Made by a program: the position numbers and the translations under genes. Under the pieces are notes generated by a model. That model was not told the origin of the DNA and searched no databases. It saw only the letters and a list, made by a program, of their open reading frames with translations. Of a stretch of DNA of 64,000 nucleotides, positions 2,451-52,831 are shown piece by piece (position 1 is the first letter of the stretch; the number at the start of each line of letters is the position of its first letter). Source of the stretch: Escherichia phage phAPEC8; the sequence record NC_020079.1; one strand, written 5' to 3'.

Positions 2451-2486
2451 AAGATTTATGGGATATCTGTTTTTAAGAGGTTTCAA

Positions 2487-2966
2487 ATGGAACTCAATAA
2501 AGATACACTGTGGGAACTCTTCAAAACCTTCGCTGGTTTTAAAGAGAATTCTGAATCCCAACAAGATTCTATACCATCTCAAAAACCTGAAACTCTAGTC
2601 AAACAAAATAAATTTGATGAAGAAAAGATGCAGGTTATTGAGGTCTTGTATTGTCCACCTGAAGAAGACGATCTCCACGGAGAGCGCATGTCTGATTTGG
2701 AAATCAGGAAGATGGTTGACAACTTCAATGAGAATATTACCAACATTAGTGGTAATCTTGGTCACATGAAGAACACCGATAAGTTTTCTCCAATTAAAGC
2801 TTGGGTAAATGAAGTCGATTGTTACATTGGTGACGAACTCGTTGTGGAAGGAACTCCCCTCGTTAAAATCCAATTCAACGACCCTGAATTATATCAAGCT
2901 CGTAAAGACGGCGTTCTTAAAGGTTTGAGTATAGGCGCAATGGGCGTTAAAGTCAAGAAGGACTAA
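2487..2966 (+). CDS. head morphogenesis protein (function unresolved)
   Basis: 159-aa ORF between portal and scaffold-like gene, SD AAGAGG before ATG. Role (protease or assembly factor) not determinable from sequence alone. Confidence 0.35.
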   Translation: MELNKDTLWELFKTFAGFKENSESQQDSIPSQKPETLVKQNKFDEEKMQVIEVLYCPPEEDDLHGERMSDLEIRKMVDNFNENITNISGNLGHMKNTDKFSPIKAWVNEVDCYIGDELVVEGTPLVKIQFNDPELYQARKDGVLKGLSIGAMGVKVKKD

Positions 2967-2968
2967 TC

Positions 2969-4084
2969 GTGGCAAATACATATTTAACTAACGTAGACTT
3001 TTCAGGAAAAGCTACGGAAGAGTCACTAGGTGCTCATATTGCTTACACTTTTGATTTTCAAGGTGGAGCGGCATCTGGTTATAATACCCCCCTTTTATTT
3101 AAGTCAGACGGATCTCCAGACATAACTTTTGAAAAGTTAGAAGCTCTCACTAAAATGGGAGAAGATGTTACAGAGTTACGTAAAAGCTATATTCAACAAG
3201 TGATGGATCGCATTTCTGAAAAAGTGCGTGAAAAATTTGAAGCTGGTTGGGATTGGGTTTACGTTATTGATGCTGACTTCGATGCGAACGTTGCAATTTT
3301 CTGTTCAGATAACGGTATGTTCTCTGTTGGCTTTAAAGTTGACGGACTGAATGTTGAAGTTGAAGAGGTTGCTAAACCTGTTGTTCGTGTTACTGATTAT
3401 CAAGTTGTTGATGGTGATGTAATGATCTCCATTGATTTCTTTGAGGACGTTTTAGACGATGCTTTGAGTAATCTCGTTAAGAGTTCCTTGAAACAAAGTC
3501 AAGTTAAAGATTATTTAGTGAAAGCTCACGCTAAAGCTAATACAAACTCTGTGGATGCAGAGGCTAACCCCGCAGGTGATAAATCTGCAAACACAACTGG
3601 AATCAATAAAGGAGAAACCCCTTTGGAAAATATCAACAAAGAAGAATTCCTGAAATCTGCTGAATTCCAAGAACTGATGAAAGCACAGATTGCTGAAGCT
3701 GTAGAAAAAGCAGCAGCAGATGCACGTGCAGCCGCAGAACTTGAAGCACAGGAAAAAATCGCTAAGGCAGAACAGGAAGCAGAAGAACTTCGTAAAGCTG
3801 AACAAGCTCGTATCGAAGAAGAATATACAACTGTTGTTAAATCCTATTCTTTCGTAGAAGAAGACAAAGTTGAAGCTCTCGTTAAATATCTGGTAGACAA
3901 TAAAGATATCGCTGAAACTATCGTCAAAGCATTCGAAAAAGCACGTGCAGAAGTGGACGCAGTTAAGAAAGAATTTGGAACAGAACGTGGTGTTGACGTG
4001 ATCAATACTCAACCTGTAGCTAAATCTTCTTCTGAACTGATTAGTCAGAAAGCTGCTGAACTTAAAAAAGCCCAGAAACAATAA
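2969..4084 (+). CDS. scaffolding-like protein with Ala/Glu/Lys-rich coiled-coil C-terminal half
   Basis: 371 aa; C-terminal half is low-complexity, e.g. AEAVEKAAADARAAAELEAQEKIAKAEQEAEELRKAEQ, typical of scaffold proteins; located just upstream of decoration-like and major capsid genes. Confidence 0.45.
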   Translation: MANTYLTNVDFSGKATEESLGAHIAYTFDFQGGAASGYNTPLLFKSDGSPDITFEKLEALTKMGEDVTELRKSYIQQVMDRISEKVREKFEAGWDWVYVIDADFDANVAIFCSDNGMFSVGFKVDGLNVEVEEVAKPVVRVTDYQVVDGDVMISIDFFEDVLDDALSNLVKSSLKQSQVKDYLVKAHAKANTNSVDAEANPAGDKSANTTGINKGETPLENINKEEFLKSAEFQELMKAQIAEAVEKAAADARAAAELEAQEKIAKAEQEAEELRKAEQARIEEEYTTVVKSYSFVEEDKVEALVKYLVDNKDIAETIVKAFEKARAEVDAVKKEFGTERGVDVINTQPVAKSSSELISQKAAELKKAQKQ

Positions 4085-4523: not shown

Positions 4524-5525
4524 ATGCCAGCAGTAATTTTAGATCAGGTTGTAGATTTCAGCCCTATGATCGAACTTCAGGATTCCCCTGATACACTGAT
4601 TGCCAGCCTGAATCTGTTCAGTGTTGACTATCATTCAACTACCGCTATTGAAATCGGTAAAGAAAAAGCTGAAGATGCTCTGATCTCCGCTCGTGAGCGT
4701 GGTGGTGAGCGTAACTTCCTGACCATGAAAAATCCAGAACTGAAAGCGTTCCGCATTCCGTTCTTCCCTCTGGATAAAAACATCAAAGCTCAAGATATTC
4801 AATCTTTCCGTAGCTTTGCAATGGCAGGAATCAATGACTCTCTGCGCACAGACGCTGAAGTTGTTAACCGCTATATGTCCCAGATTCTGCGTGACGTAGC
4901 AAAAACCAAAGAGAAAATCTTTGCAGAAGCAGTTATGGGTCGTGCCTATAACGGCGTAGGTGGTGCAGCTAACTCTGCATACAACTGGTATACCGAATGG
5001 GGTGCTACCCAGAAATCTGTTGCTGTAGACTTTGCTTCTACCACTGTTTCTCCAGCAGCCACTATCGAACAAGAAGCTCGTGCTTACATCATCGATACTA
5101 AACAAGATGGCTCTACCGCTACCCGTATCGTAGCTCTGTGTTCTCGTGAATTTTTCGCATCTCTGGTTAACTCTCCGTTTGTTCGCCAGGCGTATCAGTA
5201 TTTCCAGGGAACTCCTAACCTTCTGCGTGACCGCCTTAGCGGTAACATGGATGTTCAGGTGTTCGAATGGAATGGTGTAACTTACATTGAAGATATCCAC
5301 GGTAACATCCCTGCTGGTGAAGCATATGTTCTGCCTATGGGTATCGAAGGTATGTTCCAGGCGCACTACGCTCCTGCGGATACTCCAGAACTGGCTAACA
5401 CCCAGGCTCGTGAACTGTATACCTTCATGATCAGCCAGCACCGCACTATTCAGCTTCAGTCTGAATTCTCGCTGCTCGCAGTTAACACCCGTCCAGAACT
5501 GGTAGTTAAACTGACTACGGCTTAA
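4524..5525 (+). CDS. major capsid protein, lambda gpE-like
   Basis: 333 aa; C-terminal region NTQARELYTFMISQ...ELVVKLTTA parallels the lambda gpE C-terminus (NTQARGLRTYG...EFVSVQLA, from memory); strong SD AGGAG; followed by an intrinsic terminator. Confidence 0.7.
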   Translation: MPAVILDQVVDFSPMIELQDSPDTLIASLNLFSVDYHSTTAIEIGKEKAEDALISARERGGERNFLTMKNPELKAFRIPFFPLDKNIKAQDIQSFRSFAMAGINDSLRTDAEVVNRYMSQILRDVAKTKEKIFAEAVMGRAYNGVGGAANSAYNWYTEWGATQKSVAVDFASTTVSPAATIEQEARAYIIDTKQDGSTATRIVALCSREFFASLVNSPFVRQAYQYFQGTPNLLRDRLSGNMDVQVFEWNGVTYIEDIHGNIPAGEAYVLPMGIEGMFQAHYAPADTPELANTQARELYTFMISQHRTIQLQSEFSLLAVNTRPELVVKLTTA

Positions 5526-5545: not shown

Positions 5546-5579
5546 AGGCTCGTCCGTGATGGGCGAGCCTTTTCTGTTT
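5546..5579 (+). terminator. rho-independent terminator after major capsid gene
   Basis: Stem AGGCTCG(5546-5552)/CGAGCCT(5564-5570) with extra inner GC pairs, followed by TTTCTGTTT. Confidence 0.55.
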
Positions 5580-9547: not shown

Positions 9548-10027
9548 ATGGATAAAATGCTTACTGGCGTAATGGCCTACGACCCATCTCAAGTTATCCT
9601 TTCATTAGGTGGTTGGGAACCGTGGGGTTTTGCGGCTGATACTAAAATCGTTATTGCTAAATCTAACGATATTATCAACCCTTATTCAGGGACTGATGGC
9701 GACGTTTCACTAGCTTTGAGTCGTAACCGTTTAGGAACACTCACAATGTCTTTGCAACGCACATCTCCAGCTAACGAAGTACTTGCAACATATGCACAAA
9801 CAATGTATTCTACTCGTCAAGTAGCGTTCAGTGTTTACTTGGAAGACCCACGTGGCTATTACATTAGCACGATTGGATGGATTCAAAGTCAGCCTGAAGA
9901 TACTATTGGCGAAATGATTACAGAGAACCAATGGGTTATTGGTCTTAAAGATGCAAGCCTTCTGCGTAATGAAGTTGGTGTAGGTTTGAGCACCCTTAAC
10001 TCAATCTCTGCTCTGACAATTCAATAA
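9548..10027 (+). CDS. tail tube protein (putative)
   Basis: 159-aa ORF between sheath-like gene and tail chaperone genes; strong SD AAAGAGG; followed by a terminator. Confidence 0.45.
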   Translation: MDKMLTGVMAYDPSQVILSLGGWEPWGFAADTKIVIAKSNDIINPYSGTDGDVSLALSRNRLGTLTMSLQRTSPANEVLATYAQTMYSTRQVAFSVYLEDPRGYYISTIGWIQSQPEDTIGEMITENQWVIGLKDASLLRNEVGVGLSTLNSISALTIQ

Positions 10028-10033
10028 TAAATA

Positions 10034-10060
10034 AAGGGCAGAAATGCCCTTTTTATCATT
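10034..10060 (+). terminator. rho-independent terminator after tube gene
   Basis: Stem AAGGGCA/TGCCCTT with GAAA loop followed by TTTTATCATT. Confidence 0.55.
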
Positions 10061-32253: not shown

Positions 32254-34278
32254 ATGAATTTAACAAGACCTAATAGTGCGATAGCCGATCTGGTAGAAGC
32301 TACTTATCGAAAACGTCGCAGCTTTGAGGCAGGTTTTACATTACGTAATTCCCGTGAAGTTTTGCTGTTAGCAGCAGAAGGGAATTATTACCAATGGAAA
32401 GGAACTTTTCCTAAAGTTGTTCCAGCAAACTCTACGCCAGCCACCACAGGTGGTATTTCTTCCCTTGCATGGCAAAGTGTTGGGACCGCTGATGATATAG
32501 CAATTATCAATGCCAAGTTTACGGCAATGCAGCAACAGATTGATGATCTGTCGGAAACAATACCTGAAGCTGGTAAATCGGCTTATCAGATCGCACTTGA
32601 TAATGGTTTTGTTGGAACAGAAGCACAATGGCTTGCTTCTTTGAAAGGGGATACTGGTGCTCAACTTAATATTAAAGGATCATTAGCAAGCACTAGTGAA
32701 CTACCATCCACAGGTAACGTTGCAGGGGATGGTTATATCGTAGGTGATGTAATCTACGCTTGGGATGGTTCTGTTTGGAAACTTATTTCTTCTCTTGGGC
32801 CAGAAGGTAAATCAGCTTACGAGGTATGGTTGGCAGATGGTAATACAGGATCTGTTTATGATTTTCTTACCTCTATAAAAGGTGATAAAGGTGATGTTGG
32901 TCCTACAGGGCCACAGGGAGCACCTGGTGTTAACGCCAACGGTTTTGATTATCGTGGGGATTTGCCTTCTACAAGTAACTTACCACAACCTAACTCTGAA
33001 AACGTAAGCCAAGCTTATTCTATCAATGGTAATCTTTATGTCTCTAATGGGACAGCTTGGGTCAACATGGGTAATATTGTTGGTCCTCAAGGTCCACAAG
33101 GTGAGGCAGGTAAAGACGGTCTTGATGGAACAGATGGAGATGAAGGGAAATCTGCATATCAAAGTTGGCTGGATGCTGGTAATGAAGGGACAGAAGTAGA
33201 TTTTATTGCCTCACTTAAAGGTCCAAAAGGAGACAAGGGTGATCAAGGAGAGCGAGGTCCACAAGGTGAACTAGGTCCACAAGGACCAGTGGGTGCAACA
33301 GGATCAGGCTTAGAGATTATCGGGGTTCTGAACAGTGAAGCTGAACTTCCTCCTACTGGAGAAGTAGGTGATGCATATAAAATTAATAATGATTTGTATG
33401 TTTGGATTCAAGATGCTACGGAATGGATGAATGTTGGCAGTCTTGGAGGAACATCAATTACAGCTAAAGGTCATGTTCCGAACAGTGAAGCTCTCCCTGT
33501 TTATAATAACTATGGCGATGCCTACTTAACTGAAGACACCAGTAATCTTTACATCTATACCTACGATCAAGACACCAATTCCGCATCTTTTGTTGACATG
33601 GGAAGTATTAAAGGCGACAAAGGTGAAAAAGGGGATAAAGGGGATAAGGGTGATCCTGGAACAAATGGAACCAACGGTACTGATGGGACCAACGGTAAGG
33701 ACGGCGCACAGTGGTTTGTAGCAACAACTAATCCAGTCGCAGGAGACGGTGTTATCAATGATTACGCCTTCAATACTACCACTGGAGCAGTGTTTAAGAA
33801 AACAGATTCTTCTACGTGGACACTTATAGGAACTCTTCCTAGTATACCAGAAGCCCCTCAAGACGGCTTGACGTATGGTCGTTCTGATGGAAACTGGATC
33901 GAAATATCAGGATCAGATCCTACAGAAGCTATAACACCAACTAGAGTTACAGCAGGTTTCATGGAACTTGAAACAACTACTGCCAACTCTGGAGCATCTT
34001 GGACTCCTTCTGGAACTTCCAATATGTATGTTGTTACAGTAACTGATGCTCTGACAGTTGGAGCATGGCCTGGTGTCACTGGCTCTACAAAACCTAAAGC
34101 GTTTTCAGCAATGATTTATTTGATTCAAGATACAACGGGACACACGGTTACACTAGATGCGTCTTATGGAGCACTAAATGATACAGAAATAGCAACTACT
34201 GCTAACGCAGTAACAATTTTGCAATTAACGTATCCTGGTGTGGGTGATATCGTGGACATGGTTGTTGTAACACGATAA
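32254..34278 (+). CDS. collagen-like tail fibre protein with phage-fibre repeats
   Basis: 674 aa; three copies of K-SAY-x-(A/W)L-x-GFVGTE/GNTGS...(A/T)SLKG motif and several Gly-X-Y runs (GDKGEKGDKGDKGDPGTNGTNGTDGTNGKDG). Confidence 0.65.
   Translation: MNLTRPNSAIADLVEATYRKRRSFEAGFTLRNSREVLLLAAEGNYYQWKGTFPKVVPANSTPATTGGISSLAWQSVGTADDIAIINAKFTAMQQQIDDLSETIPEAGKSAYQIALDNGFVGTEAQWLASLKGDTGAQLNIKGSLASTSELPSTGNVAGDGYIVGDVIYAWDGSVWKLISSLGPEGKSAYEVWLADGNTGSVYDFLTSIKGDKGDVGPTGPQGAPGVNANGFDYRGDLPSTSNLPQPNSENVSQAYSINGNLYVSNGTAWVNMGNIVGPQGPQGEAGKDGLDGTDGDEGKSAYQSWLDAGNEGTEVDFIASLKGPKGDKGDQGERGPQGELGPQGPVGATGSGLEIIGVLNSEAELPPTGEVGDAYKINNDLYVWIQDATEWMNVGSLGGTSITAKGHVPNSEALPVYNNYGDAYLTEDTSNLYIYTYDQDTNSASFVDMGSIKGDKGEKGDKGDKGDPGTNGTNGTDGTNGKDGAQWFVATTNPVAGDGVINDYAFNTTTGAVFKKTDSSTWTLIGTLPSIPEAPQDGLTYGRSDGNWIEISGSDPTEAITPTRVTAGFMELETTTANSGASWTPSGTSNMYVVTVTDALTVGAWPGVTGSTKPKAFSAMIYLIQDTTGHTVTLDASYGALNDTEIATTANAVTILQLTYPGVGDIVDMVVVTR
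33613..33706 (+). repeat. collagen-like Gly-X-Y coding repeat tract
   Basis: Triplet-periodic GGN-NNN-NNN repeats encoding GDKGEKGDKGDKGDPGTNGTNGTDGTNGKDG within the fibre gene. Confidence 0.6.
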
Positions 34279-34281
34279 CAG

Positions 34282-34306
34282 AAGCCCCGAAAGGGGCTTT
34301 CTTTTT
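34282..34306 (+). terminator. rho-independent terminator after collagen-like fibre gene
   Basis: Stem AAGCCCC/GGGGCTT with GAAA loop followed by TCTTTTT. Confidence 0.6.
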
Positions 34307-34319
34307 ATGGAGGGTTTAA

Positions 34320-36995
34320 ATGTTTCCAATTCCAATATTTACTATTATGACCAGCACTGGTGTCGTTCCTCTGCCAGCAGGTATTGTTAAAAAAGTAATC
34401 ACTTTAGATTACCCAGATAATGCTGGTAATTCTAACAGCAGTTTAGCAATTTTGCTTAATGATGGTAGATTGTTTACTCAAGGCGCAAACCTTTTTGGTG
34501 AGATTGCAGATGGAACTCGTAGTGCACGATTCAATAATTTCCACTTAGCTTCTACTGTAGTAGCGGATGTGTTTACCGCAGATCGTTGTTTTGTTATTAA
34601 AACTAACAGTGGGGGATGGCAATATTCAGGATTGACAGCAGGATTGGTAGGATCTATAGCAGCAGGTGGTACGGACGCATGTGTAACTACTTGGACCAGC
34701 TTTCCATCTGTAATAACAGGGACTATCTCTTTAGCCAATCTTAAAGAGGTTAAGGGAGGATATAACAACACTCTCTGGTTAATGAATAGTGGTGTTCTTT
34801 ACGGATCTGGTCAAAACACAGTAGGCAGTTTAGGTGCAAGTACTACTAACGAAGTTTCTACTCCTCGTCAGATAACAAGTGCAGCAGTTGCTTTTGATGC
34901 AGGTTACAACCAATGCTCTTATGTCAACAATGTGGGAACCTTGCGTGTTTGTGGAGCTAGTAAAGGTTTAGCAGGTAATAATAACACAACAACAGCTTTT
35001 GTCAATGCCAAGATATCCGCTACTGAAACAGTGTATGTCAAAGATTACATCAATACAGTTTCCCAGACAATAGTTGTAGGAGATACCTCCGGTGGCACGG
35101 GTGCAGTAAACTACTTATATGTTAGATCTAATACAGAAACAACCTACACTAAACTGGATACCTTTGCAGCAGGTTTCTCAACATGGAAATTTCCACCAAG
35201 CCGCCACTCTTTTTTCGTTGGGATCAATAATTCCTTGTGGGCTATTGGTAAGAACTACACTGCAAACTTAGGTTTGGGGTATGATTCTGCGAGCGGAGAT
35301 CCACTTCAAGTGGGAAAACCAGTTAAACCTGAAGGAGTGGGTTCCTGGGATATAAACAAGCTCACAAGCGTTCATACGCTGAATATGGATGTTACTAACC
35401 AATTAGGTTATCAAGGAACCTTTTTCGTTTATAATGGAGATATGTATTATTCCGGTATTTGGAAAGATGGAAAAGCCTCGTATCTGTTCAATAGTGGTCT
35501 AAACTATAATAAATTCACACCAATAGCAAGCTCCGTGATTACGGGTGATATTCTGGCAACTGGCTTAACTACGGATTCTTTAGGAATTTGTATTGTAGGT
35601 GGAACTAAACAGTTGACACATTCTGTTAGCCCAGAAGGAGGTAAACTTTTCAATATTAAATATACTTCTTCTGCCCCTGCAAACATGACAATATCGTCTA
35701 CTGGTTTAATGACTTTCCATGCAGAAGGTGGTTTTGATGCAGGTATGACAGCCTTAAACGCTGAAGGAACAACTTTATCAGATACCTCTGGAGGATATGC
35801 TTCAACATTGAGTGTTTACACCCCTAGCTTATCTGCGATGGATGTAGGAACAACACAAACAATGGTAGCAGAAATAACGCCAACAGGAGCAGCAAGCTTA
35901 CCTGGCATGGTTGTTGAGTATTTCTCTAATGACCCTACGGTAGCAACAGTTGACCCCGTTACAGGCGTTATTACAGCGGTTGCTGATGGAGGTTGTCGTA
36001 TCGGTTGTAGAGCAACTTATCAAGGTGTGGTAACTGCCGAAGATAGTTCTTATCTCACAGTGAATGCTGTGGTGATTGTGATGGATTATGATTTGACGCA
36101 AGAAACTATTCCGGCGGATGTAAAGGTCAACAGGAGTAACCGTTATGCCAGGGCTTCTGGAGATATCCTTGTACCTACAGAGAGTTCTGCTCCCGTAGCA
36201 CCTTTAGAATATGTTGGTACAACTCCACAAGGTAGACGTGTTGTAGCAGCCAACCGTACACATATCTTTATCAACAATAACTTGACAACAGCTTCCCCGT
36301 GGTTGAAGACGAACTTGACAGTCACAGCATCAACAATCAACTCTCCGGTTGGAACTACGGCTAACACTTACAAGTTAACACCTTCTACAACTTCAGGACA
36401 ACATATTTTATCAGCAGTGAATACAGCTTCTGATATTACAGCAGGTAAGCACTGGGCGGCATCCGTATTCTTGAAGCCAGATGGGATCACTAAAGTGAAA
36501 CTCAAATTGACTTCAGGAGATGAGATTAACGAAGGGACTTATGATCTTGTAGCTGGAACATTTACAGGTGCAGATGCAAACATAATCGATATGGGGAATG
36601 GTTGGTATCGTGTAATTCTACACAAAGTGACAGTTGCCAAACAAGCATCTATAACCTATGAGATTATAGCTTTGAATGCAAGTGGATCAGACACTTTCGC
36701 AGGAGATGGTACGGCAGGTCTTATTGCTTGGGTTCCACAGCTTGAGATGGGGGATATGACAAATCCAGTTTGGGCGGGGACACCATTTGTTTGTTCTTAT
36801 GCACGAGACACTACCAGTGCTGTTACCTTCACTATTCCTAAGAATGGACATACTGGCGTGGACATTTACCACACTGATGGTACTGTGCAACGAGAGGTCT
36901 TCACTGGTACAGCTACAACTTGGATGTTGACGTTCACCGCCGCAAGTGCGGATTGGGGATCGAAGTTCATTACAGGTTTGAAATATTACGACTAA
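34320..36995 (+). CDS. tail fibre/adhesin protein with Ig-like (Big_2-type) domain
   Basis: 891 aa; segment VVEYFSNDPTVATVDPVTGVITAVADGGCRIGCRATYQGVVTAEDSSYLTVNAVV resembles a bacterial Ig-like group 2 domain; last gene of the plus-strand arm. Confidence 0.5.
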   Translation: MFPIPIFTIMTSTGVVPLPAGIVKKVITLDYPDNAGNSNSSLAILLNDGRLFTQGANLFGEIADGTRSARFNNFHLASTVVADVFTADRCFVIKTNSGGWQYSGLTAGLVGSIAAGGTDACVTTWTSFPSVITGTISLANLKEVKGGYNNTLWLMNSGVLYGSGQNTVGSLGASTTNEVSTPRQITSAAVAFDAGYNQCSYVNNVGTLRVCGASKGLAGNNNTTTAFVNAKISATETVYVKDYINTVSQTIVVGDTSGGTGAVNYLYVRSNTETTYTKLDTFAAGFSTWKFPPSRHSFFVGINNSLWAIGKNYTANLGLGYDSASGDPLQVGKPVKPEGVGSWDINKLTSVHTLNMDVTNQLGYQGTFFVYNGDMYYSGIWKDGKASYLFNSGLNYNKFTPIASSVITGDILATGLTTDSLGICIVGGTKQLTHSVSPEGGKLFNIKYTSSAPANMTISSTGLMTFHAEGGFDAGMTALNAEGTTLSDTSGGYASTLSVYTPSLSAMDVGTTQTMVAEITPTGAASLPGMVVEYFSNDPTVATVDPVTGVITAVADGGCRIGCRATYQGVVTAEDSSYLTVNAVVIVMDYDLTQETIPADVKVNRSNRYARASGDILVPTESSAPVAPLEYVGTTPQGRRVVAANRTHIFINNNLTTASPWLKTNLTVTASTINSPVGTTANTYKLTPSTTSGQHILSAVNTASDITAGKHWAASVFLKPDGITKVKLKLTSGDEINEGTYDLVAGTFTGADANIIDMGNGWYRVILHKVTVAKQASITYEIIALNASGSDTFAGDGTAGLIAWVPQLEMGDMTNPVWAGTPFVCSYARDTTSAVTFTIPKNGHTGVDIYHTDGTVQREVFTGTATTWMLTFTAASADWGSKFITGLKYYD

Positions 36996-36996
36996 T

Positions 36997-37031
36997 AAAA
37001 AAGGGAACCCGCAAAGGTTCCCTTTTCTTTT
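36997..37031. terminator. bidirectional intrinsic terminator at the convergence of plus and minus transcription arms
   Basis: A6 (36997-37002), stem GGGAACC/GGTTCCC (37003-37022), then TTTTCTTTT; flanked by U/A tracts on both sides so it can serve either strand. Confidence 0.65.
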
Positions 37032-37058
37032 ATAAAAACTCTTTATAAATCAATAAGA

Positions 37059-37946
37059 TTAGAATGGGATATCATCGTCGAAGTCCATTGGAGGTTCTTC
37101 TTGATTGCTTGGAGTTGGTTCTGGTTGTGGTTCAGGTTTCTTCTCTTCTTTCTTCTCTTCTTTCTTAGGTTGTTCTGCGGAACCACGAATGGCAGCAGCA
37201 ACTTTATCAGACAGAGCCAGAACTTTACGAGCAGAGTCAATCAGATCTTCTACAGATACAGTCTTAATGGTATGGTCTTTACAAGCATTGAGAATAGCGT
37301 GACCAACAGATGCCCCAAGATCATAATCATTAATATCAACGCCACGAGATTCAGCAATTTCAGATTTCAGCGTGACAGTTGCAGATTGAACAACCCCAGC
37401 GATATCGAAAGCATCGCCTTTAACACCATTACGAATCAGTTCCAGTGCACCATTTACTGCGTGACCAGTTTCCAGACCTACAGTATCACGTTTTTTATAG
37501 GACTGCTTAGGAGCAGCATCGTTGGAACCTTTATTGCCAGAAGATTTGTTAGACTTCTGAACACCATCGGTAGACAATACTGTAATACGAGATTTTTTAG
37601 TATTGTAGTAAGTCTTACCGCCTTTATTATCAACGCGATCAATATCAATACTTACTTCTACACCTTTTTCAATAGTGATCCAATTATCACCTTCTTTGAC
37701 TTGCAGGTTTTCATAACCTTCTTTCAGTTCAATGTCACCAAGAGAAATCCAAACACCTTTCTCATCTGGTTTAGCACCTTTCTCTTTCAGAACAAGAGAA
37801 GCTCGGTGAGTTGAAACAATCGTTTTCCCTTCCCAATGAAAAGTTTTAGGTTCAGCGAATTTATCCAGTTTAACGTAGTCTACGATACCAGTTGCATAAG
37901 TTACGGTTTTGCCTTTACGATCAGTTTCAGTATTAATTACGGACAT
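37059..37946 (-). CDS. ssb: single-stranded DNA-binding protein with E. coli SSB-type C-terminal tip
   Basis: 295 aa; C-terminus ...SNQEEPPMDFDDDIPF matches the acidic protein-interaction tip of E. coli SSB (PMDFDDDIPF, from memory); disordered Lys/Glu/Pro-rich linker precedes it. Confidence 0.6.
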   Translation of the reverse strand: MSVINTETDRKGKTVTYATGIVDYVKLDKFAEPKTFHWEGKTIVSTHRASLVLKEKGAKPDEKGVWISLGDIELKEGYENLQVKEGDNWITIEKGVEVSIDIDRVDNKGGKTYYNTKKSRITVLSTDGVQKSNKSSGNKGSNDAAPKQSYKKRDTVGLETGHAVNGALELIRNGVKGDAFDIAGVVQSATVTLKSEIAESRGVDINDYDLGASVGHAILNACKDHTIKTVSVEDLIDSARKVLALSDKVAAAIRGSAEQPKKEEKKEEKKPEPQPEPTPSNQEEPPMDFDDDIPF

Positions 37947-37962
37947 TATTATCTCCTCTACA

Positions 37963-38355
37963 TTACATTAATTTTGCACAGAAAGAGCGGAGTCTTTCCA
38001 TATCATCTTGCTCTAACAGGTATTTACCTTTACCTATTCCAACTCCAATTTCACCATTAGGAAAATGAACTATTTGCACTGGGAAACCTCCGAGTTTAAT
38101 TGTGGCAGCTTTGCCTTCTTCGTCTATAACGTTTCGGATTGTATCTTGCAGTGAAATGAATTCTTTGTTTGTAACAGTGGTTTCAATTATTTCAGATGTT
38201 TCGACACGAGCAGTTAGCTTCTTGTTTCCACCTTGAATAACCAAAATTTGAAAATAAAAAGAGTTGTCAAGACCTACAACATTTTTCTCAACTAGTGTCA
38301 AACTGGTATAGTTTCCATAAACAGTTTCAACAGCTATCTTAGAACGTTCAGTCAT
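37963..38355 (-). CDS. hypothetical protein
   Basis: 130-aa ORF between the SSB and nucleotidyltransferase genes; no recognisable motif. Confidence 0.45.
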   Translation of the reverse strand: MTERSKIAVETVYGNYTSLTLVEKNVVGLDNSFYFQILVIQGGNKKLTARVETSEIIETTVTNKEFISLQDTIRNVIDEEGKAATIKLGGFPVQIVHFPNGEIGVGIGKGKYLLEQDDMERLRSFCAKLM

Positions 38356-38400
38356 TGAATGCTATCCTATCATAAAATGTTTAATATTGTCAAGCTTTAA

Positions 38401-39574: not shown

Positions 39575-39587
39575 ATCTTCTCCTATA

Positions 39588-39605
39588 AAGGGGCAGAAGC
39601 CCCTT
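39588..39605 (-). other. GC-rich stem-loop between polymerase and small downstream gene
   Basis: Perfect 7-bp stem AAGGGGC/GCCCCTT with 4-nt loop; lacks a U-tract, so more likely a processing/stability element than a terminator. Confidence 0.35.
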
Positions 39606-39623
39606 ATAAAACAATACGTTAGA

Positions 39624-42221
39624 TCAATGACAGGATGCCCAGGAATTACCCACATCATATCCGGCAGTAAGCTGAACATTAAGATTGTAAAATTCTCCAG
39701 CCTTAGTAACAGCTAAGGCAGCAAGTTCACCTGCCCGACTATAGGCTGTAAACCATCCACCTTTGGGAGATTCATGAATGTTAGCCCAAATTTGTCCCGT
39801 CTCTTTTTCCTTATTATGCTTCCATTCTTCAACTTTAGCAAGGCATTCTTTATCAATTTTCTTTTGTTCTTCAGGATCGTCTACTTTCTTCCAACCTAAC
39901 GATTCAGGTGAAAACCATTTGAATTCTACAAGGTTACGAGAAACTTCAAGCTGGGCTTCATCGTGATATGCGATCATTTGTTGCACGAAGTCTTTATTCT
40001 TCCAGTCATCTTTAAAGAAGTCAACACTTAGTCCTTCTTCTTCGATCATGTCGTCATAAATAACCATTGCACGTTTAGCACAGATAACCCCACCACTTTG
40101 GAACAGAGAGTTAAGAATCGCGTGAGCAGAACGAGTAGGAACCTTACGACCGTCAATACCCAAAACATATTGTTTACCAGTCTTAACCCAGAAATCGTTT
40201 AAACGTTCTTTAAGACGCGCCAATGGGAATGCAGCTTCCCAGAAAGCATCGAACACCAATTGACCTGTAAACTTATCGCTACCAATTGTTTTAGCAACCT
40301 TGTCGGCTTGTGCACCATAGGTAATACCATACTTAACAGATTTAGCAGGACTACGTTCAAATTTACGTCCAATAGTTTCAGTGATACGTTTTGCCATCAT
40401 TGTGTGAACATCATTAGGTTTCTCTAACAGCAGAGCGTTACAATATTCGTGTGGCTCCGGCTCGTACCGCCAACAGTAGTGTGATTCAATTTTTGCTTCC
40501 AAAGAGTCGAAGTCGTAGCCGATCTGGAAGTATTTAGGAACCTCTACACCAAACAAGTTACGCATCTCCCATCCAAACAAAGATGTGACACGAGGAATAT
40601 TAGCTACAGATCTATGCTTCATACGAGAGGTTGCAGCATCACATGTAGCGGCTGGTGTAGGAATACGCCCATCCGCCCTTACTGCGGCTAAGAAACCTTT
40701 ATCGTATTCTTGATCTTCTTCGTCTTCTTCCCAATCAGCACCGCCACCTAAAATAGAGTTCCTACGATGCTTATACGTTAAGTATTCTACAATCTGTGTA
40801 GCATAAGGGAATTTCTCACCCAAAGCTTGCAGGTTAGGACAGATTTCTTTTTCCTGACCTTTGGTAAAACATGGGTTAGTCAATACTTTAAGACCGCGAC
40901 CTTTACCTTTTGCTATACGCTCTTGAATCTTCCTTTCCAAGGTTTCCGGTGTGCACTCCAGATGATCACAACGGTCCTGACAAAAATTAGAAGATAGAGT
41001 TTGCTCAACGTAAGCTCGAATACCTTTCTGAAGTTCTTCCTCGCTCTTTTTAATCTTGGTGCCAGATTTAAGAGTCAAGTCTTTATCTTTATATTCAGAC
41101 GGTACCCAACCTAATCCTACAAGCCAGTTTTTAATATGGGTTGTATCGTTCAATGTTGCAGGGATGTTAGGATCACACAGAGGCTCATCTGCTGCAACTG
41201 GCAGTTTCCACTCTTTCCCCAACATAACTAACCACCAATCGCCATCCCTCTCTTCCAAATGACCATCATGTTTCTTAGCAAAATTGATCATATGGTTAGT
41301 TGGCTCTAAGTTCTTTTTAATTTGCAACTTAGGTGGAATAAAAGCTTTAAGATAACCTTTTGTTGCTGGTTTAGGTGGCAAAATAGGCTCAACGAGTAAA
41401 CGAAGACGCTCCATTTCTGCATCCAAAAAAGCAAGGTTCTCTTCTGCTTGTTTCATGTTAAAAGCAAACCCACGGTGTTCCTGGCGTGTAATAATGTCTG
41501 CTACACGTTGTTCAAGTTCAAATGGACCTTCCCATTTATCATAATCACCCCATTCTTCCATAAGGTAATTATATACGCTCGTATTGGCTTTGTTGTCATA
41601 GATACAGTAATAAAGCATATCCGCAGCAAAAGTCTTAAATCGATCTTCTTCTGGAATCTCTTTACGGAAATCTATTTTTACATCACCACCTGCTTTTCGA
41701 GAAAGTGCTGCCAAGCTATGTCCTGATTTGCCCTCAATCTTTCGATCTGGGTTTAACACTTTACTCAAAATCAAGGAGTCAATAAGTTTTACCTTATTTT
41801 TGCCCCACGTATTATATTTAACACTGTAATCTAATCCATAAAACAGTTTTGTAGCCAACCAGTCGTAGTTGATACCGTTGTGAGCCACAGCCATTTCAAC
41901 CAGATATTCAGGCTTGTCTTTAAAATAACCTTCATGATTAATAAAATCTGGGAAATCTTTTAGTTGAAAATGTGTGTAATCTTGTGCCACATACTCTTTA
42001 AGAACATATGTGTATTTACCATCTGACTCTTCATAAGGACGCCCATCAAAGATGTATTTAGGGCCATCGTGGAAAGCTACTATTTCTCCTGTTTCATGGT
42101 TCTCTAAGACAATACAGTGCATTTGAAATGTGTCTTTGAGACGATAAGGACTAGCTAAATAATCAATAGTGTCATTATTCAACAATCCGTTTGCTTCAAT
42201 ATCCCATGTAAACTTACTCAC
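39624..42221 (-). CDS. DNA polymerase, family A (PolA/T7-like) with 3'-5' exonuclease domain
   Basis: 865 aa; Exo I motif WDIEANGL at N-terminus; motif B-like RSPAKSVKYGITYGAQ and motif C-like AYHDEAQLEV; GTG start overlapping the methyltransferase stop, with SD AAGGAGG. Confidence 0.8.
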   Translation of the reverse strand: MSKFTWDIEANGLLNNDTIDYLASPYRLKDTFQMHCIVLENHETGEIVAFHDGPKYIFDGRPYEESDGKYTYVLKEYVAQDYTHFQLKDFPDFINHEGYFKDKPEYLVEMAVAHNGINYDWLATKLFYGLDYSVKYNTWGKNKVKLIDSLILSKVLNPDRKIEGKSGHSLAALSRKAGGDVKIDFRKEIPEEDRFKTFAADMLYYCIYDNKANTSVYNYLMEEWGDYDKWEGPFELEQRVADIITRQEHRGFAFNMKQAEENLAFLDAEMERLRLLVEPILPPKPATKGYLKAFIPPKLQIKKNLEPTNHMINFAKKHDGHLEERDGDWWLVMLGKEWKLPVAADEPLCDPNIPATLNDTTHIKNWLVGLGWVPSEYKDKDLTLKSGTKIKKSEEELQKGIRAYVEQTLSSNFCQDRCDHLECTPETLERKIQERIAKGKGRGLKVLTNPCFTKGQEKEICPNLQALGEKFPYATQIVEYLTYKHRRNSILGGGADWEEDEEDQEYDKGFLAAVRADGRIPTPAATCDAATSRMKHRSVANIPRVTSLFGWEMRNLFGVEVPKYFQIGYDFDSLEAKIESHYCWRYEPEPHEYCNALLLEKPNDVHTMMAKRITETIGRKFERSPAKSVKYGITYGAQADKVAKTIGSDKFTGQLVFDAFWEAAFPLARLKERLNDFWVKTGKQYVLGIDGRKVPTRSAHAILNSLFQSGGVICAKRAMVIYDDMIEEEGLSVDFFKDDWKNKDFVQQMIAYHDEAQLEVSRNLVEFKWFSPESLGWKKVDDPEEQKKIDKECLAKVEEWKHNKEKETGQIWANIHESPKGGWFTAYSRAGELAALAVTKAGEFYNLNVQLTAGYDVGNSWASCH

Positions 42222-43015
42222 TATCCCTCCTTTCTAATGTTCTCCAGAACCCACTGAAGTTCTTTTAAACTTAAACTTCTTACTCCCGCAGTTTTACTAG
42301 CTTCAGCTTTAAGTAACGGGTAAGCCTCAATGATACGCGTTTTAAGATCAGAAGTCAAGGCTTTTAAAAAATAGGTAGATGCTTCAGATAAAGAATCCTC
42401 TTCTGATAACACTTTACCTGCACTTGCTCCCGCTCTCCTAACGGCTATGTCGTAGTCTTTACTGTTGCCTAATACGAATAGTCGATTTTCTCCTAAAACA
42501 ACGGGAGAACGCTTCTCGTTGCGTTTAATCCATATCTGGAATACACAAGGAACATCCCAAGGTTCTCCATGAAGAATAAAAGATCCTTTTGGACATTCTT
42601 CTTCGTAAAGAAGATGCATGTGGGGATTTAGTTTGTGTGCAAAAAAGATTTTTTGAAATGTGCGAGGCAAGATAAAACAAATACCACCTTCGTTATCCAG
42701 CATTTCAGCACAATGGTTAAAGAATTTAATGGCAAGACTAGCATTTTTTCCAAACGGAGGATTACCGACAAAAGCAGTTACACTGCCAACAGACTCAACA
42801 GATTGAGCTAAAAAATCTGCCTCAATACAATCTTCAAACTTAGGGTCAATATCAAAAGAAGTTATGTTTTTAAAACAAGAAGAGAAAGCTCCTTCTCCCG
42901 CAGATGGTTCTACGTAGTTAGCTTCCTCTCCAAAAATTTCTTTGATCTTATCACATAAGAACCCCGCATAAGCGGGGTTAGTGTAATATTGATCAAGTGT
43001 GTTCAACTTGCTCAA
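42221..43015 (-). CDS. SAM-dependent methyltransferase, N6-adenine/N4-cytosine DNA MTase-like (NPPF motif)
   Basis: 264 aa; motif I-like VEPSAGEGAF and motif IV VGNPPFG; translationally coupled to the DNA polymerase gene. Confidence 0.55.
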   Translation of the reverse strand: MSKLNTLDQYYTNPAYAGFLCDKIKEIFGEEANYVEPSAGEGAFSSCFKNITSFDIDPKFEDCIEADFLAQSVESVGSVTAFVGNPPFGKNASLAIKFFNHCAEMLDNEGGICFILPRTFQKIFFAHKLNPHMHLLYEEECPKGSFILHGEPWDVPCVFQIWIKRNEKRSPVVLGENRLFVLGNSKDYDIAVRRAGASAGKVLSEEDSLSEASTYFLKALTSDLKTRIIEAYPLLKAEASKTAGVRSLSLKELQWVLENIRKEG

Positions 43016-43024
43016 TAGTCCTCC

Positions 43025-43456
43025 TTAGTTGTTAGCGAACTCAATAGTGAGGTCAACTTTACCATCGTCAGAAATAACCATGTTTTTGGTATTTTTAAAG
43101 ATGATATCTACTTTACCTTCACTTACACGACAGAATGCAACACCATCTGCAACTTTATCGATATAATATTTGTAAGAAAGAATACCCACTTTACTACGAC
43201 CAGCACCTTTTGTGAAAGAAGGGCTTACATCGAAACGGAAACCTTTAGAAGAAACAACACGGTAAGAACGTCCAGTTGGAAGATGTTCAATAACAGAGAC
43301 ATTATTCTCAACAACTTTTACAGCAAACTCTTCAGGATGATCCTCAACAATCATATGTGGGATGGCAAATGCCAACGCTTGTTTGTGTTTAATAACACCA
43401 GCACCCAGAGCACCAGCAGCTTTAACTTTTGCATTCAGATCGATTGTCATACGCAT
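43025..43456 (-). CDS. hypothetical protein
   Basis: 143-aa ORF with SD GAGGAG and its own consensus promoter upstream. Confidence 0.5.
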   Translation of the reverse strand: MRMTIDLNAKVKAAGALGAGVIKHKQALAFAIPHMIVEDHPEEFAVKVVENNVSVIEHLPTGRSYRVVSSKGFRFDVSPSFTKGAGRSKVGILSYKYYIDKVADGVAFCRVSEGKVDIIFKNTKNMVISDDGKVDLTIEFANN

Positions 43457-43489: not shown

Positions 43490-43518
43490 AGTATAAGTCT
43501 CTTCCGTAAAGTTGTCAA
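43490..43518 (-). promoter_or_regulatory. sigma70 consensus-like promoter on minus strand (TTGACA-N17-TATACT)
   Basis: Minus-strand TTGACA (43513-43518), 17-nt spacer, TATACT (43490-43495); 34 nt upstream of the ATG at 43456. Confidence 0.5.
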
Positions 43519-43534
43519 CAGGTATTTTTAATAA

Positions 43535-43550
43535 AAGGGCCGAAGCCCTT
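43535..43550 (-). terminator. stem-loop at primase-helicase stop (probable terminator)
   Basis: Stem AAGGGC/GCCCTT with 4-nt loop overlapping the stop codon; minus-strand downstream sequence begins UUAUU. Confidence 0.4.
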
Positions 43551-45327
43551 AATAGTTGCTATCCGTAGGCAAATTAGCAGGATTGTTGAAATACTGCTCT
43601 TTGTCATGCAGAGTTGCAGTTCTAATGTCATAGTAAAACTGCCCTGCCGGACCAGTTTCTGAGAACTCACGGTTTTTTAGGATAAAGCAATGAGTCGTAT
43701 TGCGTTCTACAGGGTCTTCAGCGGCTTTATCTCGTTCCAAAGCCAAGGTAATACCAGCACCTTTAGCCAAGAAACTACTACCCATTGCATCGTCCTCTGT
43801 TAAGTGTTCATTGCCACCATTAGCCGATTTCTTAACGTGTGAGATGACAATAATAGTTATAGCATACTCTTTCATGATGCGCTTCAACCATGTTGCTAAC
43901 TCTTCCTGGGCTTGAACATCCATACCAGAAAGCAAATCAGAATAAGGGTCGATAACAAGAATTGTTACTCCAAAATAGATGATCATCTCCAAAACTTTTT
44001 CTTTGATAGACTCCACATCTGCTCCACGATCATCACACACATAAAAACGTGGTGATCCATCTTCTCTTTCGTAAAAATCTAGGATTTTTTCTTTATTCTC
44101 TTCCAAGATTTGAAATTTCTCTTCCGGTGTTTTCCTGTGTAGAGGAATATGCAGGAACGAGGACAACAGGTTACGAGAATATTTCTTATAAGTTGCTTCC
44201 AAGGACAGAATACCTAGGGTATGTTCTGGGTGCGCAACAATAATATGTTTGGTGATCTCGTTCACCATCAAAGTTTTACCGATACTGGTCTTTGCCAGGA
44301 TAACTGTAATCTCTTCCTCTACTAAACCACCACCCAGCATATTTGCAGCAACACGCATAAAAGGAGGCAAGGTAATCATCTTGGATTCCAAGCATTCTAA
44401 TGCAGCTTCATACAAGACATTAGAAGCATAAACACCTGCTGGGGTGTATAGACGAGCACTCCAAAAAGCTTTTACGAAATCTTTTGCACGACCTTCTTCC
44501 AGATACTGATTGGCATCCTTAAGATCCATCTGCATACGGTAGACTTTGTTACGAGGCAACACCTTAACAATATTTTCAAATGCCTCATTACCTGCTTTGT
44601 CATTATCCATGCAAACAATAATCTTCTTAAATTTTTCAAAGAAAGGATATTGTGCCTGAACTTGTTTATACATACTGGTTTCACCAGTTGTGCCACTAAC
44701 TACTGCTGGAAGTTCATATTTGTTGTCCAAGTTTTCAGACAGCATTTGATAAGCTGCCAGAGCATCGTGTTCACCACCTGTAATTACCACAGTATGAGAA
44801 CGGTCTGCAAAACGAATTTGTCCAAAAAGATCTACATCTTTACCTACTTGACCAATAGGTTTACTGAAATCTTTAGGATGAATACGACGCTTAAAACCAA
44901 CCAATTCTTTACCGATAGTAGTTGGATATAAACAACTTTCTACTACCATCTGATCCCCTTCCTGGCGGTATTCATAACGAACACCATAGAAAGATGAAAC
45001 TTTTTCTTTAATGCCTCGATAACCACGTGGGTTGGTTGATGTTTCTTGAACAATTTTACGATGAATCTGTTTATTAAATTCCGAACCCACAATCTCCTCC
45101 TCTTCTTCTAAAACTTCACCATTTTCTCGTAACCATTCTACGCTAGGAATAGTGTATTCACACGCAAAGCACTTAGCACCTTTATGCTCTCCATTAGAAT
45201 CTAATCCATAAACCATCAGGTTATTACGAGAGCGATCCTTGCCATTTTTCATGCAGCGCGGACAACCTGTATGTCCTTCCTTGCTAAGATCAACATCAAA
45301 TCCATATTTAGTTATAATGTGCGACAC
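43549..45327 (-). CDS. DNA primase-helicase (T7 gp4-like: zinc finger, TOPRIM, DnaB-type helicase)
   Basis: 592 aa; N-terminal CxxC...CxxC zinc ribbon (CPRCMKNG...CFACEY), TOPRIM motifs (ITGGEHDALAAY, CMDNDKAGNEAF), Walker A AKTSIGKT and Walker B ILVIDPYSDL. Confidence 0.8.
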   Translation of the reverse strand: MSHIITKYGFDVDLSKEGHTGCPRCMKNGKDRSRNNLMVYGLDSNGEHKGAKCFACEYTIPSVEWLRENGEVLEEEEEIVGSEFNKQIHRKIVQETSTNPRGYRGIKEKVSSFYGVRYEYRQEGDQMVVESCLYPTTIGKELVGFKRRIHPKDFSKPIGQVGKDVDLFGQIRFADRSHTVVITGGEHDALAAYQMLSENLDNKYELPAVVSGTTGETSMYKQVQAQYPFFEKFKKIIVCMDNDKAGNEAFENIVKVLPRNKVYRMQMDLKDANQYLEEGRAKDFVKAFWSARLYTPAGVYASNVLYEAALECLESKMITLPPFMRVAANMLGGGLVEEEITVILAKTSIGKTLMVNEITKHIIVAHPEHTLGILSLEATYKKYSRNLLSSFLHIPLHRKTPEEKFQILEENKEKILDFYEREDGSPRFYVCDDRGADVESIKEKVLEMIIYFGVTILVIDPYSDLLSGMDVQAQEELATWLKRIMKEYAITIIVISHVKKSANGGNEHLTEDDAMGSSFLAKGAGITLALERDKAAEDPVERNTTHCFILKNREFSETGPAGQFYYDIRTATLHDKEQYFNNPANLPTDSNY

Positions 45328-52275: not shown

Positions 52276-52831
52276 GCATACCTCCTCTACCAATTTTGAA
52301 GCCCAAATCGTAAGCTTCCTTAGTGATCTTTTGTAACTCACTTATAGGAAGTGTTACAAGAGGATCATCTTCTTCAATTTCCATCTTGTCATCTTCTGTT
52401 TCAATGAGAGTATTATGCACTTTGTGATAAGGGTTGTCAACACGTTTAAACTTATTCTTTTCTGTGCTGAAAAAACAATCTGGATCTTCTTCACCATCAC
52501 CCCAACCTTGGTTAGGATCTCCGTCAGATTGTTCTGTAGGGATTTCACCTGTAAAGTACTCTTCCAGCACCATAGCGATACCGTCCCTTGGATTTGAGGA
52601 ATGCATCAAATCACAAACCTTACTCCAATCCATAGCCCATTCAAATCGTTCACGAACACCATTTTCATCCTCCTTTCCAGAGAAAACACAACCATAACTA
52701 TCATAGTTGCCATACATCTCTTCAATAACAACACCGTCCTTCAAAAGAAAGAGATAACAAGGTGATCCGTCGAAAGAAGTAGAAAGGGCAGCTTTGCCCG
52801 ATTCTTTGCACAAAAAGCTAAAACAACCCAT
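52268..52831 (-). CDS. hypothetical acidic protein
   Basis: 187 aa; Asp/Glu-rich central region (EQSDGDPNQGWGDGEEDPDCFF, ETEDDKMEIEEDDP). Confidence 0.45.
   Translation of the reverse strand: MGCFSFLCKESGKAALSTSFDGSPCYLFLLKDGVVIEEMYGNYDSYGCVFSGKEDENGVRERFEWAMDWSKVCDLMHSSNPRDGIAMVLEEYFTGEIPTEQSDGDPNQGWGDGEEDPDCFFSTEKNKFKRVDNPYHKVHNTLIETEDDKMEIEEDDPLVTLPISELQKITKEAYDLGFKIGRGGMRV

Follow-up and report, generated by a model that had tools for sequence, protein, structure and literature searches.

What separates two transcription arms that run head-on into each other in a large phage genome? We examined this question in a 64,000-nucleotide stretch of Escherichia phage phAPEC8 (NC_020079.1; hereafter the window), a Phapecoctavirus, or phAPEC8-like myophage of the Stephanstirmvirinae, that is ~99% identical over this stretch to many E. 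coli phage records. Phage UP17 is 100% identical over positions 36000–38000, and no single record is identical to the window throughout. Left of the junction all substantial genes lie on the plus strand and include those for terminase, capsid, sheath, tube, tape measure and tail fibre proteins, and right of it all substantial genes lie on the minus strand and include those for an SSB-like protein, a nucleotidyltransferase, DNA polymerase, a methyltransferase and a primase/helicase, among others. GC skew changes sign at the junction, from +0.03 to +0.10 in the plus arm to −0.10 to −0.16 in the minus arm, and cumulative GC skew across positions 1–64000 peaks there, near 36–37 kb. The two arms meet in a 63-nt gap that is the sole plus/minus convergence within the window. 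On its left, the last structural-arm gene (34320–36995, +) encodes an 891-aa tail protein (phrog_11922) in which an RCC1-like propeller is combined with a Big_2 Ig domain, and on its right, the last replication-arm gene (37059–37946, −) encodes a 295-aa SSB-like protein ending in ...MDFDDDIPF. We keep the name SSB as putative because only the acidic C-terminal tip of this protein resembles SSB families in PHROGs and a Pfam search detected no SSB domain, although some GenBank records name the homolog SSB.

A compact element occupies the left half of the gap. Past the plus-strand stop codon (TAA, 36993–36995) and a single T, an A6 run (36997–37002) is followed by a hairpin (37003–37022) with arms GGGAACC (37003–37009) and GGTTCCC (37016–37022) enclosing the loop CGCAAA (37010–37015), and then by the T-run TTTTCTTTT (37023–37031). 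Read on the plus strand, the hairpin has a 7-bp stem and a 6-nt loop, the T-run supplies a U-tract, UUUUCUUUU, that is broken up by one C, and the A6 run can pair with this U-tract to lengthen the hairpin. Read on the minus strand, a U-G pair closes the tetraloop UUGC to give an 8-bp stem, and the A6 run becomes a U6 tract for the terminator of the SSB-like unit, with UUUUUUAUU as the full U-tract. The tails mirror each other, with A6 preceding the hairpin and T4CT4 following it; A occupies 8 of the 9 positions immediately 5′ of the stem, and each U-tract is U at 8 of 9 positions. The distance from stop codon to stem is 7 nt on the plus strand and 36 nt on the minus strand. A preliminary description of this DNA had reported an A6 run, a 7-bp GC stem and a U-rich element at 36997–37031, and direct reading of the sequence matches it to the base except that the stem, correctly given as 7 bp, is not purely GC but contains 5 G-C and 2 A-T pairs. 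The same description had located the element exactly where the plus-strand structural arm meets the minus-strand replication arm, in agreement with a position in the only convergent gap, at which gene strands and GC skew both flip. The palindromic octamer TTTATAAA occurs four times in the window, and two of these copies, separated by 13 bp (37029–37036 and 37042–37049), lie beside the element where the SSB-like gene has its 3′ untranslated region; the pair is kept in relatives that lack an endonuclease insertion, and the octamer is not enriched in the window (4 observed versus 3.9 expected).

From its anatomy, fold stability, position, enrichment over chance and conservation with compensatory changes, all of which we observed and describe here, we conclude that the junction element is very probably a canonical bidirectional intrinsic (Rho-independent) terminator at which host RNA polymerase would stop where the late structural (+) and replication (−) arms converge; termination itself, its efficiency in each direction and the polymerase used are what we infer from these observations. 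The element combines a GC-rich stem-loop within the range of intrinsic terminators (stem of ~5–14 bp, loop of 3–8 nt) with an adjacent U-tract, at a non-coding site just past a sense-strand stop codon, and its structure is kept with compensatory changes. It also has the features of tonB-P14-type terminators, a place between convergent genes and an A-tract that mirrors the T-tract, so that each strand carries a hairpin and a U-tract. Published accounts of bidirectional terminators depict a hairpin flanked by an A-tail and a T-tail and active on both strands (PMC1852404; PMC4824070), and the junction fits this description. In the proposed mechanism, plus-strand RNA would fold into GGGAACC/GGUUCCC as polymerase enters UUUUCUUUU, with release expected ~7–9 nt beyond the stem, near 37029–37031. 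On the minus strand, the same DNA would yield the 8-bp hairpin and then UUUUUUAUU, and the RNA would be released near 36996–36994; this unit most likely begins at a conserved promoter-like site at 38393–38364. Such a terminator would prevent antisense transcription of either arm from the opposite one, and the two RNAs would be complementary over about 35 nt at their 3′ ends. A literature search for transcript 3′-end or transcriptome data on phAPEC8-like, phi92-like and other Stephanstirmvirinae phages found none that was relevant.

The promoter-like site is a sigma-70-like candidate (TTGACA, 18 nt, TG-n-TAGGAT; 38364–38393, −) in the 45-nt gap upstream of a 130-aa gene (37963–38355), and its −35 and extended −10 elements are kept from Phapecoctavirus to phi92, KP13-26 and Tr1 with a variable spacer between them. 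This site is likely the start of a ~1.35-kb two-gene unit that ends at the junction terminator. The candidate ends ~8 nt before the ATG of gene 37963–38355, and transcripts from it would be nearly leaderless, with Shine-Dalgarno-like bases that overlap or follow the −10 element. Within the 63-nt gap itself a motif scan found no sigma-70-like site, and across the window the T4-type late promoter motif TATAAATA is not enriched (6 observed versus 4.8 expected). A scan of the window for tRNA and tmRNA genes found none.

The element folds far better than its base composition predicts. Minimum free energy is −16.0 kcal/mol for the plus-strand RNA versus −6.9 ± 2.3 for dinucleotide shuffles (z = −4.0) and −19.3 kcal/mol for the minus-strand RNA versus −9.5 ± 2.7 (z = −3.6), and none of the 200 shuffles folded as well on either strand. 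With its A-U extension, the plus-strand hairpin reaches −15.3 kcal/mol and is the second most stable of the plus arm. We then scanned the whole window for G-C-closed hairpins with ΔG ≤ −7 kcal/mol and a minimum of 6 T among the next 9 bases. This strict scan returned 18 strand-instances of hairpin plus T-run versus 2.4 ± 1.6 in dinucleotide shuffles, an enrichment of ~7-fold, and 8 strand-instances with both an A-run and a T-run versus 0.1 ± 0.4 in shuffles. Intergenic sequence makes up only about 5% of the window, and the sense-strand sites lie 6–9 nt past same-strand stop codons, or 22 nt in the case of the capsid gene. The junction is the best flanked of these sites on either strand: T fills 8 of the 9 positions 3′ of the stem and A fills 8 of the 9 positions 5′ of it. 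A looser pattern scan of the whole window was not enriched overall (7 sites versus 11.2 expected) because its pattern is loose. A chance palindrome is ruled out by the fold relative to shuffles, by the enrichment of such sites and by covariation within the stem.

Does the symmetry of the element itself indicate use in both directions? In the strict scan, A/T symmetry is also present at terminators between co-directional genes (10036, 12838, 34284 and 63357), and symmetry alone is therefore no proof of two-way use. It is a general trait of terminators in this AT-rich phage, in part a by-product of AT-rich gaps, and no dedicated design of the junction; what makes two-way use plausible is position. 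The preliminary description had further listed similar AAGGGC-tetraloop-GCCCTT hairpins after several genes that it called highly expressed, and it is right in part: all four exist where it placed them (10034, 34282, 39588 and 43535), but their sequences differ from the junction and two lie on the minus strand with weak U-tracts. A repeat family is rejected, as the stems differ from each other and from the junction stem; the recurring hairpins share an architecture, and, as a further departure from REP-like elements, the pattern GGGAACC-N-GGTTCCC occurs just once in the window.

Two of these hairpins appear to be good plus-strand terminators by sequence. The first (AAGGGCA-GAAA-TGCCCTT followed by TTTATC; 10034–10051, +) comes after a gene for a 159-aa structural, tail-tube-like protein (9548–10027) and is annotated in phage ASO2A, and the second (AAGCCCC-GAAA-GGGGCTT followed by TCTTTTT; 34282–34299, +) comes after a tail fibre/spike gene (32254–34278) and is annotated in ASO2A and Schickermooser. 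On the minus strand, the hairpin AAGGGGC-UUCU-GCCCCUU (39588–39605, −) follows the DNA polymerase gene (39624–42221), has the weak U-tract UUUAUAGG and coincides with a minus-strand terminator annotated in ASO2A. This hairpin is missing from the close relative UP17, in which a gene for a 192-aa HNH endonuclease (phrog_953) fills the gap (UP17 locus 39583–40161, replacing window ~39575–39623), and is thus dispensable. The last codons of the UP17 DNA polymerase gene, beside the endonuclease gene, are recoded. A 6,001-base query covering the region of this hairpin is matched in phage anhysbys by two pieces extending over 6,736 bases, and anhysbys probably also carries an insertion, of ~735 bases, in this region. 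The remaining hairpin, AAGGGC-UUCG-GCCCUU (43535–43550, −), overlaps the stop codon of the primase/helicase gene (43549–45327), is followed by UUUUAUU and is not annotated in ASO2A. A near-consensus sigma-70-like site (TTGACA-17-TATACT, 11 of 12 matches; 43518–43490, −) begins no more than 17 nt past it, and 43490–43550 (−) thereby forms a terminator–promoter pair inside the replication arm, ahead of gene 43025–43456.

Further hairpins lie elsewhere in the window. The strongest on the plus strand (5547–5569, +) has a 10-bp G-C-closed stem of −16 to −20 kcal/mol followed by TTTTCTGTT, and begins 22 nt past the major capsid gene (4524–5525) at a place where ASO2A has no terminator annotation; the loop of this hairpin contains the start codon (GTG 5556 or ATG 5559) of the gene that follows. 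Two hairpin plus T-run sites on the sense strand within coding sequence (42962–42977, −, and 52786–52799, −) could be attenuators or chance occurrences.

To follow the element through evolution, we compared homologous junctions from 16 genomes comprising Phapecoctavirus, Justusliebigvirus (phi92, Paula and UAB_1), unclassified Stephanstirmvirinae (KP13-26 and Tr1) and two IMG/VR contigs; the IMG/VR search used the SSB-like protein and returned two loci, both bearing the hairpin. All 16 genomes have an A-run, a 6–7 bp stem, a 4–8 nt loop and a T-run at the point of convergence. The T-run reads TTT(T)CTTTT in 15 of the 16, the forms found being this one and TTTATTTG. Three stem alleles occur (GGGAACC/GGTTCCC, GGGAGCC/GGCTCCC and GGAGCC/GGCTCC), and the loops are unrelated across genomes (CGCAAA, ATTA, AATA, AAAT, ATTT, TGAT, TAAACA and TTGAAAAA). 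The 7 core pairs form in every one of the 12 distinct sequences (100%), and two stem pairs have undergone compensatory A-U to G-C switches that changed both sides. The covariation score is 0.183 versus 0.113 ± 0.021 in shuffles and was equalled by 1 of 500. In a control with the 3′ partner slid by 1–3 columns, 0–1 pairs show two-sided change and at most 73.5% of cells are paired, versus 93.2% for the structure. This covariation rests on few independent events among related sequences, and is supportive rather than decisive.

The architecture is maintained even when the neighboring genes change. A phrog_2340 endonuclease gene lies as an extra minus-strand gene between the SSB-like gene and the junction in ZCKP1, Mt1B1_P17, AV125 and phiWec188, and gp154 together with a methyltransferase gene occupies this place in phi92 and Paula; despite these inserted genes, the A-run, hairpin and T-run remain at the convergence point in all such relatives. 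In the four genomes with phrog_2340, the endonuclease gene is placed directly after the sequence CTTTTAT. In four divergent relatives the SSB-like protein runs past ...DDDIPF by an identical 15-aa extension, APIGLQYGRNFLHCF (locus coordinates: Mt1B1_P17 1452–2384, ZCKP1 2473–3405, phi92 1393–2340 and Tr1 1503–2474), and the extension is accompanied by extra minus-strand genes at this place, an endonuclease or a methyltransferase plus gp154; the protein stops at IPF in the window, tuntematon, AV125, phiWec188 and KP13-26. The GGAGCC/GGCTCC allele carries the loop AAAT in tuntematon, AV125 and phiWec188 and the loop ATTT in ESCO5 and Mt1B1_P17, and these loops are exact reverse complements, which fits inversion of the whole hairpin, with two point changes a less likely origin. 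In many Phapecoctavirus genomes that are 96–98% identical, homology to the window starts at ~36994, 37024 or 37057–37063, and the tail gene therefore appears to have been swapped as a block with its own hairpin allele, with the break at or beside the T-run.

The element is an ordinary one that is already annotated as a terminator in near-identical phage records. Phage vB_EcoM_ASO2A (ASO2A; MZ726793) has the same locus and hairpin, with terminators at 103002–103035 (−) and 103012–103045 (+), and differs from the window in nothing of substance apart from one additional T in the T-run. Schickermooser (NC_048196) has a terminator at 95083–95104 (+) in a gap that is identical to the window over the hairpin, and in both phages the hairpin likewise lies between homologous genes for the tail protein and the SSB-like protein. 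Paula, too, has terminator annotations on both strands at its homologous site. These annotations are computational, made with TransTermHP and WebGeSTer on both strands in ASO2A and with ARNOLD in Schickermooser, and the paper that accompanies terminator annotations merely counts terminators (PMC10612097). The symmetric bidirectional terminator proposed in the preliminary description is therefore supported by a hairpin and U-tract on both strands, by the convergent position, by compensatory changes and by the annotations of near-identical phages. Against Rfam 15, the whole window gave no match at gathering thresholds, and a permissive scan of 36800–37300 gave sub-threshold matches only (17–18 bits, E of 0.3–0.5), which fall on the hairpin and reflect the terminator hairpins of sRNA models.

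Comparable elements are known in unrelated systems. The terminator TD1 of phage phi29 sits where late and right-early transcription converge, a position like that of the junction; phi29 and its host are unrelated to those considered here, the phi29 genome is small, linear and protein-primed, and TD1 has no sequence homology to the element described here. The phi29 transcription map presents TD1 as a bidirectional terminator (PMC2731898). The E. coli tonB-P14 terminator (Postle and Good 1985) and the "hypersymmetric" terminators (Wright, Kumar and Hayward 1992), as cited in PMC4824070, resemble the junction in having a GC-rich hairpin with an A-tract and a T-tract between convergent genes; in that account they are experimentally tested elements and are not homologous to the junction, which is known from sequence. 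Closest in form is an annotated terminator of the Klebsiella phage Matisse (Slopekvirus, Straboviridae; NC_028750, 143937–143955), with the sequence AAAAAA-GGGAACC-GCAAT-GGTTCCC-TTTCTTTT, which also lies between convergent genes (a 5′-3′ deoxyribonucleotidase gene pair; locus coordinates 705–738) and is common to about 100 records of T4-like Klebsiella phages. Matisse belongs to another phage family and has other flanking genes, and the likeness is probably convergence on a short constrained motif, although ~35 nt cannot tell convergence from transfer.

How evenly the element would serve its two directions bears on the first of the alternative readings, in which it acts one way in effect, as an efficient terminator for the minus-strand SSB-like unit and a leaky attenuator for the plus strand, with ribosomes 7 nt upstream hindering the fold. 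The U6 tract of the minus strand is uninterrupted, its stem is 36 nt from the stop codon rather than 7 nt, and symmetric terminators with unequal efficiencies have been reported (PMC4824070). In a reporter system, repression of the lambda tR2 terminator was nearly complete at stop-codon distances as short as the 7 nt found here, and the terminator reached full efficiency only beyond ~27 nt (PMC4824070). Because the plus-strand stem starts so close to its stop codon, termination of the plus arm may be leaky under close translation coupling; termination on the minus strand would be unaffected by the stop codon at 36 nt, and the two directions may differ in efficiency. The plus arm offers parallels. 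The 41-nt gap at 34279–34319 consists of a terminator and a ribosome-binding site and is too small for a promoter; the last plus-strand gene is therefore presumably reached by read-through of a leaky terminator at 34282, and the other internal terminators of the plus arm, likewise 6–9 nt past stop codons, must also leak because the gaps that follow them fit no promoter. Weighed against this are the stability of the plus-strand hairpin, second in its arm, the 8 of 9 T downstream, the plus-strand terminators called by three prediction programs and the TTT(T)CTTTT run kept in 15 of 16 relatives. We consider a terminator that works in one direction only in effect to be unlikely, and prefer the bidirectional terminator with efficiencies that may be unequal.

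Another reading starts from the exchange of tail genes. The terminator hairpin would be the portable end of a module that travels with an exchangeable tail (receptor-binding) gene, the T-run and its AT-rich stretch would be a preferred site of crossover and a landing site for free-standing endonuclease genes, and the Matisse element would reflect transfer of a cassette between phage families and not convergence. We regard this combination as quite improbable. The stronger claim that the junction is foremost a DNA-level element (a boundary for recombination or between modules, or a place where mobile endonuclease genes insert) whose likeness to a terminator is incidental is scarcely credible: block exchange of the tail gene and hairpin allele and the endonuclease genes just past the T-run in four relatives speak for it, but any exchange of modules would be expected to leave its breakpoints at gene ends, and the two-tailed hairpin is kept whatever the flanking alleles, which points to selection on an RNA signal.

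Convergent genes also raise the possibility that the hairpin mainly pauses converging polymerases and that RNA release needs head-on and trailing collisions. Collision-driven terminators of E. coli (Ju et al. 2019; bioRxiv 10.1101/2022.10.23.513370) share with the junction a convergent gene pair and a hairpin, here encoded on both strands, and the mechanism has been proposed for many E. coli convergent gene pairs (bioRxiv 10.1101/2022.10.23.513370). That class, however, is unlike intrinsic terminators in lacking their canonical features and performs poorly in one-directional, one-promoter assays (bioRxiv 10.1101/2022.10.23.513370), whereas the junction has canonical U-tracts on both strands and is on this account not assigned to the collision-dependent class. 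The gene content of the arms suggests that they are probably expressed largely at different times, which would limit collisions, and we judge this mechanism very unlikely here. Stable 3′ hairpins are also well established as protecting mRNAs, and the junction hairpin could in principle guard both messages from 3′ exonucleases or mark a site of cleavage while polymerase is not stopped, as the hairpins with weak U-tracts at 39588 and 43535 may do. U-tracts conserved on both strands would be needless for stabilization alone; the two roles are not exclusive, and a stabilizing or processing signal in place of a terminator is highly improbable.

The canonical bidirectional terminator favored here matters little beyond annotation and opens no new question, and it may be of use as a compact two-way terminator part. 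For the phage, the element would set the 3′ ends of both the last structural transcript and the SSB-like unit, and it would mark the boundary between the two transcription arms, an aid to the transcription map of phAPEC8-like therapeutic phages.
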